The notes below the pieces were generated by a model that was not told where the DNA came from, did no database searches, and saw nothing but the letters and a program-made list of their open reading frames with translations. Made by a program: the position numbers and the translations under genes. DNA of 64,000 nucleotides from positions 60,489-124,488 of the forward strand of contig DAIRGA010000012.1 in assembly GCA_036794825.1 (NCBI GenBank), read 5' to 3'. The stretch is from Bacteroidales bacterium. GTDB taxonomy: Bacteria; Bacteroidota; Bacteroidia; Bacteroidales; 4484-276. Shown here one piece after another: positions 13-4,192 of the stretch; position 1 is the first letter of the stretch; the number at the start of each line of letters is the position of its first letter.

Positions 13-1041
13 ATGAAAAACAGATTTACTTACCTGATCCCGGTAATCATCTATTGTGTGATTACGGCAAACATGATGATAACCGGCTGTACGAAAGAAG
101 GACCTGTTGGCCCTCAGGGAGCTGACGGACAGGATGCTTCCGAGTCCTGCACCAGTTGTCACAATTTTTCCGAGTTTCTGCTCGAGAAGATCAATCAGCA
201 CAACAATTCAGTGCACGCTAGTGGTAATAATATTAACCGCAGCGGAGACGGATGCGCTATATGTCACACCAGTCAGGGATTCACAAAGTTCCTTGCAGAT
301 GGGACCACAGGCGCAGTGCAGAATCCTAACCCGATCAACTGCCGCACCTGTCACCCGATTCATGAGAGTTATGACGCTGCTAAGGATTTTAATGTACGCA
401 CAGCTGCAGCAGTAACCATGACGGTTGGCGGAGGTTCTTATGACTTCGGAAATTCTAATCTTTGTGCCAACTGCCATCAGGCGCGGGCAATCACACCTTA
501 TCCGGTTGCTGGGGGAGATAATATTACTATCACAAATGCGCGTTATGGCCCCCACTATAGCCCACAATCCAATGTGTTAATCGGTAATGGTCCTTTTGAA
601 ATACCGGGAGCATTGCAATACACAAACTCTCCACACGGTCAAATTGAAGATGGCTGCATCACCTGCCACATGGGCAACACAGCCAACGGACTTGCTGCTG
701 GAGGTCACCAGATGAATGTTACCTATACAGGTTCTAATGGCAATGAGGCCTGGAACTATTCAGGCTGTACTGAATGCCATCCAAGTGCAACCGATCTTGC
801 CACTCTTAGAGCTCAGCACCGCGAGGAAATTAAAACCCTCCAATATGCCCTTAGGGATAAACTGATTGAAAAAGGATTGCTCAATGCAAGCGAACTGGTT
901 CCCGTTCCAAAAACTGTTACTCCTAATGAAGCAGGAGCGATAATGAATTACAAGTTTGCTTACGGTGACCATAGCTATGGCGCTCATAACTATCCTTACA
1001 TGAAAGCTTTGTTAACCAACTCAATTGCTGCACTTAATTAA
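13..1041 (+). CDS. Hexaheme c-type cytochrome lipoprotein
   Basis: Six CXXCH motifs (CTSCH, CAICH, CRTCH, CANCH, CITCH, CTECH); signal peptide ending in lipobox ITGC; short G-X-Y stretch GPVGPQGADGQD; spare His residues (GPHY, SPHG, GGHQ, GAHN) as candidate distal ligands. Confidence 0.9.
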   Translation: MKNRFTYLIPVIIYCVITANMMITGCTKEGPVGPQGADGQDASESCTSCHNFSEFLLEKINQHNNSVHASGNNINRSGDGCAICHTSQGFTKFLADGTTGAVQNPNPINCRTCHPIHESYDAAKDFNVRTAAAVTMTVGGGSYDFGNSNLCANCHQARAITPYPVAGGDNITITNARYGPHYSPQSNVLIGNGPFEIPGALQYTNSPHGQIEDGCITCHMGNTANGLAAGGHQMNVTYTGSNGNEAWNYSGCTECHPSATDLATLRAQHREEIKTLQYALRDKLIEKGLLNASELVPVPKTVTPNEAGAIMNYKFAYGDHSYGAHNYPYMKALLTNSIAALN

Positions 1042-1102
1042 AAGGTTGTTTCGGCTTTCAACGATTCAAAGACACTAATCCGAGTTTAACACTCAAGACC
1101 TG

Positions 1103-1140
1103 ACAGCCCTGAATGTGCAGCATCATTCAGGGCTGTTTTG
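1103..1140 (+). terminator. Rho-independent terminator-like hairpin
   Basis: Perfect 13-bp stem ACAGCCCTGAATG / CATTCAGGGCTGT, 8-nt loop, followed by a short T run, downstream of the hexaheme gene. Confidence 0.7.
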
Positions 1141-1177
1141 CTACATATTATATTAATCACCAAAAAATTGACAGACG

Positions 1178-2680
1178 ATGAAATTACCAGACTCAGCTCG
1201 TAACTGGACTTCAATTTTAGGCGCCGCACTGGCACTTACTACCCTTTTTGTTATCATTTTCCTGTTTATCATCTCAATGTTGTTTGATTCTGGAAGTTCG
1301 TATCTGGGACTTTTTACTTTTATCATTCTTCCGGTGTTCCTGGTTATTGGCCTTTTTCTGATTCCAATTGGAATGATATTTACCAGCAAAAGGAAAAAAT
1401 CAATTACAAAAACCGGGGATCAAACGGATTGGCCGATCATTAACCTGAACCTCAGGACCACCAGAAATGCACTTACAATATTTGTGATTGGATCGGTTAT
1501 ATTTTTCATGCTTTCGGGAATTGGTTCATATGAGGCATTCCATTATACTGAATCGGTCGGGTTTTGCGGAACACTGTGCCATAAAGTTATGGAGCCCGAG
1601 TTTGTTGCTTATCATCAATCATCACATGAGAGGGTCAAATGTGTGGAATGTCATGTTGGTGCGGGTGCCGACTGGTATGTAAAAAGTAAACTTTCCGGTC
1701 TTTACCAGATCTATTCGGTTACTTTCAACAAATATCCCCGCCCGATTCCCACACCTATCCATAACCTGCGTCCGGCGCGCGAAACCTGCGAGCAGTGTCA
1801 CTGGCCCGAAAAGTTCTACGACCCGATGATCAGAATGAAAAAATCTTATCTGAGTGACTATGATAACACAGAATGGGACATTCATTTGATGATGAAAACC
1901 AGCGCCACTTATAGCGCCCTGGGGTTGCAGGAGGGTATTCACTGGCACATCAATCCTGATGTTCAGATTGACTATATTACTGATCCTGACGATCCTTCAA
2001 AGATACCGTGGGTAAGGTCGCGAAACAAACAAACCGGCGAAGAAAAAATTTTCCTCGACAGCCAATACAGCGATAAACATATGGCAATGGATGCCGGCCA
2101 GTTGAAAACGATGGATTGCATGGATTGCCATAACCGCCCGTCTCACAACTACAAAGTGCCACAGAATTTTGTTGACGACCTGATTACTGCCGGCAACATA
2201 TCTACGGAATTGCCTGATATTAAGTACGTTTCGATGGAAATCCTTTATCAGGATTACGAAACCAAGGAAGCCGCATTTGATTTTATTCAAAAACGGGTAA
2301 AAGAATATTACGAAGAAAATTATGACTACCTGCTTGAAGACTACGAAGAGCAGATCAATCAGTCTATTGCTGCCATTCAAACTGGTTTCAGCCAGAACAT
2401 TTTTCCTTATATGAAGGTTAACTGGTCCGTTTACCCGACTCACCTTGGGCATATGGAATCCGACGGATGCTATCGTTGTCATTCAGACAGACATTCGACA
2501 AGCAGCGGCGAAACTATTTCAAGGGATTGTCAGTTGTGTCATAACATCATAGCCCAGGGAACGCCCGGATCAATGCAATACAGCGAATCATTCAATGCAC
2601 TTGATTTTGTCCATCCTATAGAAATCCGCGAAGAATGGCGGGTAAAGCTTTGCAGTGAATGTCATTATAGATTGTATTGA
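1178..2680 (+). CDS. imcH: ImcH-like heptaheme inner-membrane cytochrome c (NapC/NirT-type N-terminal domain)
   Basis: Three N-terminal hydrophobic helices; hemes CGTLCH (CX3CH), CVECH, CEQCH, CMDCH, CYRCH, CQLCH, CSECH; blocks FCG.LCH.VMEPE, CVECHVG.GA.WYVK.K.SGL.Q, NLRPAR.TCE.CHWPEKF, GIHWHI, MDC.DCHNRP.H match Geobacter ImcH as I recall it. Confidence 0.8.
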   Translation: MKLPDSARNWTSILGAALALTTLFVIIFLFIISMLFDSGSSYLGLFTFIILPVFLVIGLFLIPIGMIFTSKRKKSITKTGDQTDWPIINLNLRTTRNALTIFVIGSVIFFMLSGIGSYEAFHYTESVGFCGTLCHKVMEPEFVAYHQSSHERVKCVECHVGAGADWYVKSKLSGLYQIYSVTFNKYPRPIPTPIHNLRPARETCEQCHWPEKFYDPMIRMKKSYLSDYDNTEWDIHLMMKTSATYSALGLQEGIHWHINPDVQIDYITDPDDPSKIPWVRSRNKQTGEEKIFLDSQYSDKHMAMDAGQLKTMDCMDCHNRPSHNYKVPQNFVDDLITAGNISTELPDIKYVSMEILYQDYETKEAAFDFIQKRVKEYYEENYDYLLEDYEEQINQSIAAIQTGFSQNIFPYMKVNWSVYPTHLGHMESDGCYRCHSDRHSTSSGETISRDCQLCHNIIAQGTPGSMQYSESFNALDFVHPIEIREEWRVKLCSECHYRLY

Positions 2681-2831
2681 TAAATAACTCATCACTCAAT
2701 TATTCGACTTCGGTCAACGCGGACATATTACAGCGGGTGTCAGGGTGGATGTTAACTGAGAGCAGAATTTTACAGCATGCTTATTCAAGTGAAGCTTTTG
2801 TGATTTTTTGAACATCGTTCAGTGCATTTTA

Positions 2832-2839
2832 TACTTTTG
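2832..2839 (+). promoter_or_regulatory. Bacteroidota -7 promoter box (TACTTTTG)
   Basis: Matches TAnnTTTG, about 80 nt upstream of ATG 2921. Confidence 0.55.
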
Positions 2840-2920
2840 CATTCCATCAACTGAATGAGTGGTAAATTTTTATGCTTGTCAAATTCTGATTCAACTATAA
2901 ATTTTCAAACAATTTTTAAA

Positions 2921-4192
2921 ATGAGAAATTCTATTGTGCTTTTAATCAAGTTGTTGCTCGTCAGCTCACTCGCTATATTTTTATTCACGTCATTTACTGA
3001 TGACAACGAATATGCTGAAGAAAAAAACACCTCCGGAACTGTGACCTTCACCGCTACAACGCTGAACGCTGGCGGGACTTACGCTCCAAGACATGTTCTT
3101 GCTATCTGGGTGGAGAAGAACGGTGTTTTTGTCAAATCCCGCAAGGTAATGGCCAACCAGCGGAAACAATACCTTTATAAATGGGTAGCTTCGAGTAATT
3201 ACAATGTGACCGATGCCATAACCGGCGCTACGCTCACCCAGCCTCAGACCCATACTGTGCAATGGAACTGCACTGATCTGAGCGGGAATGTGGTTCCTGA
3301 CGGCGAGTACACCATCCTGATTGAGTTTACTGATAAGCATGCCCAGGGGCCATATTATGCGGTAAATTTTCAAAAGGGAACAGCGCCGCAAAGCATCACG
3401 CCCCCCAACCAGCAGTACATCATCAATATGCAGCTCACCTACACGCCTGATGTTATAGTAACTGCTGATTTCAGCGCTAACATTACGCAAGCGTGTGAGC
3501 AGCAGCCGGTGATCTTTACCGATAATTCAACCGGAGCAACTTCGTGGCTCTGGAACTTCGGCGCAGGAAGCAACCCGCCAACCGCCACCACCCAGGGACC
3601 GCACACGGTTACCTATTCCACACCTGGCGCCAAAACAGTTTCGCTTACCGTAAACGGCACTGTAACCTCCACCAAAAACGATTACATTCAGATTGAGCCA
3701 ATACCGGTGGCCGGATTTATTTTCGAAGTTGTCGAAAACATCGCCATTTTTGCCAACACCTCCCAATTTGCCACATCCTGGCTCTGGGATTTCGGCGATG
3801 GAGAAACAAGCACAGAGTTTAACCCCATTCATCAATACTGGCAAAACGGCGAATTTACCGTCACGCTGACAGCAACCAGCGATGATTGCGGCAGCGATAC
3901 TTTCAGCGATGTTGTTATTATTACCGGGGTTGGCATTGATGACCGGGATCAGCAGACATTTGAAATTTTTCCCAACCCAACTGCCGGAGCTTTAAACATC
4001 TTTTTTCAAAAAAATATGGATCAGGCCGGTATAAGAGTATTTGATCTGCAAGGGCGCACCGTCTTTAGCAGCCAATTGAATATCAACGGCAAAGCATCTG
4101 CTTTCCTCGATCCCGATCTGAAACCCGGATTATACCTGGTGGAGGTGCAGATGGACGGCAAAAACTACCGCCGGAAATTAATTGTGAATTAG
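2921..4192 (+). CDS. DUF2271 + 2 PKD domains + T9SS type A C-terminal domain
   Basis: Signal peptide MRNSIVLLIK...; DUF2271-like block YAPRHVLAIWVEK...YLYKW...DAITGATL; PKD motifs SWLWNFG and SWLWDFGDG; CTD FEIFPNPT...G.Y.VEV...RKLIVN. ATG 2921 preferred over track start 2855. Confidence 0.8.
   Translation: MRNSIVLLIKLLLVSSLAIFLFTSFTDDNEYAEEKNTSGTVTFTATTLNAGGTYAPRHVLAIWVEKNGVFVKSRKVMANQRKQYLYKWVASSNYNVTDAITGATLTQPQTHTVQWNCTDLSGNVVPDGEYTILIEFTDKHAQGPYYAVNFQKGTAPQSITPPNQQYIINMQLTYTPDVIVTADFSANITQACEQQPVIFTDNSTGATSWLWNFGAGSNPPTATTQGPHTVTYSTPGAKTVSLTVNGTVTSTKNDYIQIEPIPVAGFIFEVVENIAIFANTSQFATSWLWDFGDGETSTEFNPIHQYWQNGEFTVTLTATSDDCGSDTFSDVVIITGVGIDDRDQQTFEIFPNPTAGALNIFFQKNMDQAGIRVFDLQGRTVFSSQLNINGKASAFLDPDLKPGLYLVEVQMDGKNYRRKLIVN

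Follow-up and report, generated by a model that had tools for sequence, protein, structure and literature searches.

Bacteroidales, which rank among the main degraders of organic matter in anoxic sediments, are usually treated as fermenters in models. Homologs of ImcH, CbcL and CbcBA, the three quinol dehydrogenases of Geobacter, have already been published from Bacteroidetes (PMC6295460; 10.1101/2021.04.15.440034). Proteins of the ImcH family, as described, are 495-519 aa long and combine three N-terminal transmembrane (TM) helices with a CX3CH motif beside the TM domain and six CX2CH motifs; the family has been reported from one member of the Bacteroidetes (Draconibacterium sediminis), from Ignavibacteriae and from Calditrichaeota, the list of homologs including D. 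sediminis, Melioribacter roseus and Caldithrix abyssi (PMC6295460). Homologs of cbcBA have been remarked on in Prolixibacter, Marinilabiliales and Labilibaculum (10.1101/2021.04.15.440034), and the flavinylation motif [S/T]GA[S/T] has been defined in a survey of flavinylated proteins (Meheust 2021, PMC8238504). The DNA analyzed here is a window of 64,000 nucleotides (nt) on a 137-kb metagenome contig from a Bacteroidales bacterium (contig DAIRGA010000012.1 of assembly GCA_036794825.1, positions 60,489 to 124,488). An earlier note on this DNA had described three co-oriented genes at its start, encoding a six-heme lipoprotein (gene 1), a seven-heme membrane cytochrome (gene 2) and a DUF2271-PKD protein with a type IX secretion system (T9SS) sorting domain and a TGAT motif (gene 3), and had read them as one extracellular electron-transfer module; all three open reading frames (ORFs) are found on the + strand. 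Genes 1 and 2 are core parts of a conserved anaerobic respiratory island that is rather likely to be an outward electron-transfer system, and gene 3 is plausibly an accessory, a recurring but optional neighbor of the island rather than a core member. The combined reading, that of a respiratory island of the extracellular electron-transfer (EET) type with an accessory T9SS-exported flavoprotein, has in our judgment an even chance of being right.

Gene 2 (1178..2680, + strand; 500 aa) shows every architectural hallmark of ImcH, as the earlier note had proposed. Its product has three N-terminal hydrophobic segments (residues 18-36, 49-67 and 98-116), a CxxxCH motif (CGTLCH) at 130 and CxxCH motifs at 155, 204, 314, 431, 451 and 492, and it matches the NapC/NirT family of Pfam (PF03264, E 1.8e-8). 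The same architecture of about 500 aa, three TM segments (13-35, 45-67 and 100-122) and a NapC/NirT-like region is found in ImcH (GSU3259) of Geobacter sulfurreducens (Levar 2014; Zhong & Shi 2018, PMC6295460), where the heme motifs lie at 132, 156, 205, 311, 428, 448 and 486, so that a spacing of 24/49/110/117/20/41 in gene 2 compares with a nearly identical 24/49/106/117/20/38 in GSU3259; the motifs of D. sediminis ImcH match with a constant offset of 9. Species-representative genomes hold at least 594 relatives of gene 2, the best 80 of which are 49-62% identical over the full length. The D. sediminis locus (L010), whose ImcH homolog is among those already listed, is 57% identical over residues 1-500, and Melioribacter and Caldithrix loci from metagenome-assembled genomes are 50-53% identical. 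A sequence search of the PDB with gene 2 returned only weak matches to NrfH and cytochrome c3, and to our knowledge no ImcH structure exists. Length, TM segments, heme motifs and homology all fit, and on these sequence features gene 2 is a member of the ImcH family; by analogy with Geobacter, it is a putative inner-membrane menaquinol dehydrogenase that may serve respiration with high-potential extracellular acceptors. An imcH homolog is also present in Labilibaculum manganireducens (L071), an organism whose fermentation is accompanied by the reduction of Fe(III) and Mn(IV) oxides (PMC5760507).

The context of gene 1 lies largely outside the window, which starts 12 nt 5' of this gene, as had been observed, and thereby splits an operon. 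In the contig locus that includes 10 kb upstream of the window (L001), gene 1 (13..1041, + strand; 342 aa) comes sixth and last in a closely spaced operon that begins about 3.5 kb 5' of the window and encodes, in order, a monoheme lipoprotein (125 aa), a DUF5777 barrel, a class I cytochrome c, a CbcA-like 7-heme cytochrome, a CbcB-like cytochrome b and the hexaheme lipoprotein itself, whose start lies 30 nt past the cytochrome b gene. The barrel protein (DUF5777, "membrane bound beta barrel" in Pfam, E 1.4e-75) has a signal peptide and a C-terminal Phe; the 7-heme protein (329 aa, seven CxxCH) carries a C-terminal membrane helix with His; and the cytochrome b is a 215-aa protein of the b561 type (PF01292, E 1.6e-20). 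Divergent from the operon, and upstream of it, is a gene for a Crp/Fnr-family regulator (crp) that probably controls it. The advice of the earlier note to look upstream for a porin or more cytochromes was well founded, since the β-barrel and four further cytochrome genes were found there. Across the 84 kb made up of the window and 10 kb on each side, DUF5777 is the only porin-like gene that Pfam annotates, no porin being annotated in the window itself, and the 64-kb window holds no CxxCH-bearing ORF other than genes 1 and 2.

Between genes 1 and 2 lies the hairpin that had earlier been called a terminator (about 1102..1137, + strand), a terminator-like or attenuator structure with a 14-bp stem followed by UUUUG. 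It folds at -24.8 kcal/mol (z -5.2), with none of 200 shuffles folding as well, and is unlisted by a simple terminator consensus scan; that combined sigma-70 and terminator scan is uninformative for Bacteroidota promoters.

The product of gene 1 begins with a signal peptide ending in a lipobox (ITGC, Cys26) and carries CxxCH motifs at residues 46, 81, 110, 151, 215 and 252. Across 117 homologs, the lipid-bearing Cys, all six CxxCH motifs and six extra His are invariant, a pattern consistent with six bis-His hemes, and a Gly/Pro/Asp-rich linker follows the lipid Cys. The family has about 560 members, labelled in the source databases "hypothetical protein" or "cytochrome c3 family protein." An AF2 model of gene 1 (pLDDT 91.7) finds its best PDB fold in OcwA (6i5b; E 5.7e-6, TMq 0.51, identity about 20%), followed by 6qvm (E 8.6e-4), an S-layer undecaheme cytochrome of Carboxydothermus, and then by NrfA entries (E 3e-3 to 3e-2); the closeness to OcwA and 6qvm, both cell-surface terminal reductases, supports the earlier placing of the hexaheme protein at the outer membrane. 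The six CxxCH motifs match neither the nine hemes of OcwA nor the five of NrfA, one of which is a catalytic CxxCK heme. On the strength of the model, gene 1 is read as an electron-transfer protein of the OcwA/NrfA fold that is a member of neither family.

Conservation of this arrangement was followed from the imcH side by clustering the ORFs of 83 loci, namely 80 genome loci (the best of at least 594), this contig, and loci from the two closest other genera. The genes for Crp, the hexaheme and monoheme lipoproteins, DUF5777, the 7-heme cytochrome and cytochrome b accompany imcH in 37-41 of the 83 loci. Their order varies: in most Prolixibacteraceae the hexaheme gene directly follows crp, at the other end of the island from imcH, whereas the two closest other genera (66-67% identity in ImcH) keep the gene order of the window up to imcH. 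Many island loci add a 943-aa protein with 19 CxxCH motifs and a cytochrome b domain (CbcL-like) and a 165-aa tetraheme c554-like protein, and in 21 of the 83 (for example L010, L011, L015-L017 and L019-L021) imcH is followed, usually past the tetraheme gene, by a gene for a protein of about 1030 aa. The latter clusters with a ResB-CcsA fusion called by Pfam in L092 (CcsBA; cytochrome c maturation system II), and it is the position of this CcsBA-type gene, 3' of imcH, that gene 3 occupies in the window. Carriers of the island include the culturable genera Draconibacterium, Mangrovibacterium, Maribellus and Ancylomarina.

Gene 3 (2921..4192, + strand; 423 aa) encodes a Sec signal peptide followed by DUF2271, a pair of PKD domains and, at the C terminus, a T9SS sorting domain of type A (C-terminal domain, CTD). 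Although the reading frame is open from 2855, both homologs and gene callers place the start at 2921, which is probably the true one. The N terminus is hydrophobic at 5-23, as expected of the signal peptide. The match to DUF2271 (PF10029; E 3.4e-7), which spans residues 81-183 when the whole ORF of 445 aa is translated, is marginal, with a score of 30.5 bits where the cut-off is 27.3; a profile of the DUF2271 subfamily scores 244 bits. The sorting domain is recognized by both PF18962 (Por_Secre_tail, E 4.2e-12) and TIGR04183 (E 2.2e-12), and the modelled CTD matches that of a T9SS-bound substrate (8glk_D, TMt 0.86) and the CTD of mirolase (8qb1). In a fold search with the model of gene 3, the only matches were to the CTD and to generic sandwiches of the Ig-like type; no relative of the DUF2271 domain has been solved, and the PKD region is poorly modelled. 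Because of the fused T9SS sorting domain, the product would sit outside the outer membrane. The window encodes the lipoprotein GldD (38305-38886, - strand) and at least three other CTD-bearing proteins, which points to a T9SS-bearing member of the Bacteroidota; sprA, porV and porU were not seen in the 84 kb around the window.

The sequence TGAT occurs twice in gene 3, at residues 101-104 within the DUF2271 domain, as DAITGAT, and at residues 204-207, where it is probably an irrelevant part of the PKD consensus FTDxSTGxxxSWxW. The DAITGAT codons (3212..3232, + strand) mark the place where ApbE is predicted to attach flavin, at Thr104 in the numbering of the 423-aa protein. All 22 aligned homologs keep the D, A, T, G and last T of the motif DAxTGAT, and none of the 79 homologs examined has lost the TGxT core, which takes the forms TGAT, TGST, TGPT and TGET. 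Among the loci L093-L172, the third core residue varies between lineages, and the Asp upstream of the core is replaced in some. The identification of TGAT as an ApbE motif, made earlier from the letters alone, gains from the invariant position of the full motif and from the presence in other organisms of members of the same subfamily beside apbE. Judged by the motif, a periplasmic ApbE probably links FMN covalently to Thr104 of the gene 3 product.

Those other organisms carry the usual form of the DUF2271 subfamily in Bacteroidia, a protein of about 250-270 aa that consists of DUF2271 and a T9SS tail. In six loci (L150, L153, L157, L158, L159 and L170) the gene for this short form lies directly upstream of apbE (PF02424, E 8.6e-82), which supports flavinylation, within a conserved cluster encoding a zinc-ribbon protein, a 216-aa unknown, a thioredoxin-like protein, DUF2271-CTD, ApbE and DUF4266; the cluster looks like a flavinylation cassette with a T9SS-secreted substrate.

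Whether gene 3 belongs with the island was approached from both sides. Within 10 kb of imcH, a DUF2271 gene was found by tblastn and the subfamily HMM in only 1 of the 82 other imcH loci (L035), and there on the opposite strand, so that a strict three-gene module, in which the DUF2271 gene would be conserved beside imcH in relatives, is refuted. Genes 1 and 2 are core parts of the island, gene 1 as the last member of the six-gene operon that starts upstream, and gene 3 is optional. A broader theme of T9SS cargo next to imcH was also considered and set aside: a CTD profile finds 27 CTD-bearing ORFs in 21 of the 83 loci, by rough estimate near the Bacteroidota background, and those inspected are unrelated and lack heme and flavin motifs.

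From the gene 3 side, the picture is different. A metagenome scan supplied the best-scoring 80 of 191 relatives, among them many full-length PKD-bearing orthologs, which is not a census; lineages were defined as clusters at 90% identity, the long, PKD-bearing form as at least 380 aa, and loci were counted where the flank reached at least 6 kb. On this basis, 8 of 17 long-form loci have at least two island genes within 10 kb, and at least three island genes lie within 10 kb in 9 of 18 long-form lineages, a set that includes the window's own, L035 (from the genome scan) and the shorter-flanked L103. Two further long-form lineages adjoin an island-type tetraheme cytochrome, and three cut-off contigs with the long form are consistent with an association with the island. 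None of 21 adequately flanked short-form loci has two or more island genes. The linkage takes three arrangements among the long forms: hexaheme-imcH-gene 3 on one strand, seen in the window's lineage only (arrangement A); gene 3 followed by a small barrel resembling an outer-membrane protein (OMP), crp, and then hexaheme-monoheme-DUF5777 onward (arrangement B); and gene 3 convergent with imcH (arrangement C). The small OMP-type barrel (PF13505, weak) stands 3' of the long-form gene in L100, L103, L104, L095 and L106, before crp where the contig reaches. For a gene placed at random in a genome of 4-5 Mb, the probability of falling within 10 kb of an 8-kb island is, by rough estimate, about 1%, to be read with the proviso that the long-form lineages are related and so are not independent trials.

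These counts bear directly on the strongest rival, in which genes 1 and 2 belong to the island and gene 3 is an unrelated, free-standing T9SS flavoprotein, for example a surface ferric reductase that serves iron assimilation or a protein with a redox or stress function, found near the island only through genomic neighborhoods shared within one clade. The DUF2271 domain is indeed known from PepSY-like/ApbE/DUF4198 iron-assimilation clusters (PMC8238504). In arrangement B (L100, L103, L104 and L105), genes assigned as ExbB/ExbD/TonB-like from sequence features, without a profile search, are divergent from the long-form gene, which may hint at a connection with iron uptake. Several observations weigh against a shared function for gene 3 and the island and are shared in part by this rival. 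Gene 3 is missing from 81 of the 82 other imcH loci, and the two closest genera carry Fer4/NrfD genes or CcsBA in its place downstream of imcH; seven long-form lineages lack nearby island genes and sit among housekeeping genes, as do orphan short forms (three in long contigs). Gene 3 also has the promoter-like box of its own that had been reported, a match to the Bacteroidota -7 box TAnnTTTG (TACTTTTG; 2832..2839, or L001 12820-12827, + strand) that lies 82 nt before the start at 2921 and is the sole + strand match between the upstream operon and gene 3, the box being only weakly above chance locus-wide (26 matches against 17.5 expected). It is further set off by flanking hairpins, one between genes 1 and 2 and one 3' of its own stop codon (4213..4264, + strand; stem about 17 bp), a likely terminator or insulating element in a region (4193-4310) that folds at -34.4 kcal/mol (z -3.2). 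A count of perfect palindromes, too crude to stand as a true negative, found no recurrent Crp/Fnr-type palindrome shared between gene 3 orthologs and island operon starts. Neither apbE nor ccs genes appear in the Pfam annotation of the 84 kb, in keeping with the caveat, already entered for the window, that apbE and cytochrome c maturation genes are absent.

Set against the unrelated-flavoprotein explanation is the proximity itself, found in half of the long-form lineages where roughly 1% would be expected, confined to the PKD-bearing form, extended by the two lineages beside a tetraheme cytochrome, and kept through three different layouts (same-strand after imcH, convergent with imcH, and by crp at the opposite end of the island), which makes chance unlikely and a functional link plausible. 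Weighing both sides, the free-standing flavoprotein is a serious if somewhat unlikely explanation, and the chance that gene 3 works together with the island falls a little short of even. One feature of the region 3' of gene 3 deserves separate mention: part of the hairpin arm (CGTTGAAAATC) repeats about 40 nt downstream within 4193-4310, so that the structure may be a small repeated intergenic element and not a simple terminator.

What the sequence itself establishes is the domains and motifs, the signals for membrane and lipid anchoring, and a gene order with its conservation; the preferred reading, of an outward-directed island with an accessory flavoprotein, builds on these. In it, ImcH (gene 2) and the pair of CbcA-like 7-heme and CbcB-like cytochromes would oxidize menaquinol at the inner membrane, as homology with Geobacter suggests. 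Electrons would then pass to periplasmic c-type cytochromes, the class I cytochrome c here and the tetraheme c554-like protein in relatives, and on to an outer-membrane module composed of the DUF5777 barrel, the monoheme lipoprotein and the OcwA-like bis-His hexaheme protein of gene 1 on its flexible tether, a role as outer-membrane exit that location signals and fold point to. Final acceptors could be Fe(III), Mn(IV), humics or similar compounds. Gene 3, as a separate transcription unit, would supply a protein exported by Sec, flavinylated in the periplasm and carried to the surface by the T9SS, a course suggested by its motif, by the adjacency to apbE in relatives and by its CTD; the two PKD domains may act as a stalk. 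The most plausible accessory role for this protein would be that of a surface flavin relay or terminal reductase fed by the outer-membrane cytochromes, and it is speculative that its flavin domain takes electrons from the hexaheme protein. The most specific version of this scheme makes the covalent flavin on its PKD stalk the outermost redox center of a conduit running from ImcH/CbcAB through periplasmic cytochromes, DUF5777 and lipoprotein cytochromes, a hybrid heme-to-flavin route in diderm Bacteroidales; we regard it as unlikely. The stalk poses a problem of distance for electrons that would have to reach FMN at its tip.

For the outward-directed island, two cautions apply in addition. The DUF5777 domain, at about 250 residues, is far smaller than the porins MtrB or Pcc that sheathe cytochromes. 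Functional data for ImcH, as far as we know, come only from Geobacter, and we know of no experiment on ImcH, CbcBA-like, DUF5777 or DUF2271-T9SS proteins of Bacteroidota.

A second rival would have the island reduce a soluble oxidant that is periplasmic or membrane-permeant (nitrite, hydroxylamine, NO, or oxyanions of sulfur or selenium), with the hexaheme protein as an NrfA/OcwA-like enzyme. The model of gene 1 does match NrfA as well as OcwA, with a weak Pfam match to Cytochrom_C552 besides; the N-terminal region of gene 2 is NrfH-like; Crp/Fnr-type regulators are typical of denitrification and nitrosative-stress regulons; and OcwA itself reportedly reduces nitrite and hydroxylamine in vitro. 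The composition of the island speaks otherwise, since a periplasmic reductase needs no lipid anchor, tether, co-conserved barrel or monoheme lipoprotein and since the island unites homologs of three Geobacter quinol dehydrogenases for extracellular acceptors. In gene 1, moreover, all six hemes are of the CxxCH type and six further His are invariant, consistent with bis-His ligation and with no obviously open catalytic heme; an NrfA-type enzyme reading of this protein was down-weighted because it has no CxxCK and its six distal His are conserved. Reduction of a soluble oxidant is an improbable account of the island. Still less probable is an island working in reverse, with electrons from Fe(II), Fe(0), cathodes or partner cells entering the quinone pool, for although proteins of the CbcL/MtoC type are known from Fe(III) reducers and Fe(II) oxidizers alike (PMC6295460) and relatives in Prolixibacter reportedly corrode metallic iron (PMC8368055), that same paper attributes the corrosion to nitrite and not to direct uptake, ImcH homologs occur only in Fe(III) reducers in published surveys (PMC6295460), and the fermentation genes of the Na+-decarboxylase type in the window fit an organism that needs an electron sink.

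Those fermentation genes form a Na+-translocating decarboxylase-like set at 12170-15948 (carboxyltransferase, OAD gamma, biotin carrier and OAD beta), preceded by genes for an acyl-CoA dehydrogenase and a glyoxalase-family, possibly epimerase-type, protein, and would fit a propionate-type fermentation. At 16770-24612 are two very large hybrid histidine kinase/response regulator genes (809 and about 1306 aa), followed by CheR-/CheB-like methyltransferase/methylesterase genes, an unusual pairing in a lineage without flagella. Large surface proteins encoded on the + strand include a 1052-aa PKD protein with a T9SS tail (28320-31478), a 1371-aa C25 (gingipain-family) peptidase with a T9SS tail (32441-36556) and a 1617-aa DUF5060/PKD protein (46945-51798), for which no tail is among the Pfam matches listed. 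On the other side of the island, 7.4-10.4 kb upstream of the window start (L001 1823-4838, - strand), lies a gene for a 5-heme protein whose length is 700-728 aa according to which start codon is used; its five CxxCH motifs all fall within the N-terminal third, and the C-terminal part is large and free of heme motifs. After this gene comes one for a 264-aa T9SS-sorting-domain protein, with an AraC-type regulator adjoining, and beyond the T9SS-tailed gene are adjoining ATP-grasp (ATPgrasp_Ter) and PqqD-like genes (L001 506-1793, - strand) that could be a small RiPP-like peptide-modification cassette. In L142 and L143, a homolog of the 5-heme protein is encoded two genes from a DUF2271-CTD gene, divergently.

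The outer-membrane part of the island and the link between T9SS and a flavoprotein appear to be undescribed. A literature search of incomplete coverage found no mention of DUF5777, no link of flavinylation or multiheme cytochromes to type IX secretion, no description of the island, and none that combined Prolixibacteraceae, multiheme cytochromes and EET; T9SS tails likewise go unmentioned in the supplements of the flavinylation survey (PMC8238504). If the outward-directed reading is true, the island, with its homologs of all three Geobacter quinol dehydrogenases, its outer-membrane barrel and its surface-type cytochromes, would give the "fermentative" Fe/Mn reduction seen in Bacteroidales a genetic basis and would supply markers for metagenomes. 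Its presence in culturable genera makes it directly testable. The DUF2271-T9SS family for its part predicts an undescribed event, flavinylation in the periplasm followed by secretion across the outer membrane, which, if true, would widen the substrate range of the T9SS and extend redox chemistry that depends on ApbE to the outside of diderm cells. Should the hybrid heme-to-flavin route exist, its flavoprotein would be the first T9SS cargo to bear a redox cofactor, and DUF5777 together with its monoheme lipoprotein would represent a new and minimal kind of gate for electrons in the outer membrane.

Compared with described systems, the island follows a logic like that of MtrCAB of Shewanella and Pcc of Geobacter, in which one set of genes provides a quinol dehydrogenase for the inner membrane, carriers for the periplasm, and a barrel and multiheme lipoprotein cytochromes for the outer membrane. 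It differs from them in lacking homologs of MtrA, MtrB and OmbB and in using monoheme and hexaheme lipoproteins instead of decahemes; NCBIfam matches to decahemes of the MtrA/DmsE type and to OmcA/MtrC fall far below cut-off (DmsE, 21 versus 192 bits; OmcA/MtrC, 17 versus 209 bits). It differs likewise from the loci of the published ImcH survey, where no mtrAB-type genes lie beside imcH, in its DUF5777 barrel and lipoprotein cytochromes. The upstream pair resembles CbcBA (GSU0593-0594) of Geobacter, also a 7-heme periplasmic cytochrome with a C-terminal His-containing TM helix and a cytochrome b (b561/Ni_hydr_CYTB), a likeness of architecture; the regulator is of the Crp/Fnr type here and the sigma54-dependent BccR there, and the fusion of 19 hemes and cytochrome b in relatives resembles the published Bacteroidetes homolog of CbcL (GSU0274). 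At the cell surface, the modelled gene 1 protein shares an NrfA-related multiheme fold with the terminal reductases OcwA of Thermincola potens (6i5b) and the S-layer undecaheme of Carboxydothermus ferrireducens (6qvm), but it has six hemes where these have nine and eleven, and it is lipid-anchored in a diderm whereas they are bound to the cell wall or S-layer. Gene 3 is akin to the ApbE-flavinylated DUF2271 proteins of PepSY-like systems (Meheust 2021, PMC8238504) in its extracytosolic DUF2271 domain with the [S/T]GA[S/T] site and in the occurrence of members of its subfamily beside apbE. Its product would also resemble PplA, from the flavin-based electron transfer of Listeria, in being displayed at the surface with a covalently bound flavin. 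Partners of the PepSY-like and DUF4198 kinds (Pfam annotation of the 84 kb) and of the Ndh2/EetAB kind were not found near it. What distinguishes gene 3 from both is the fusion of DUF2271 to PKD and T9SS sorting domains, which would place it outside the outer membrane, and the identity of its recurring neighbors, which are multiheme cytochromes.

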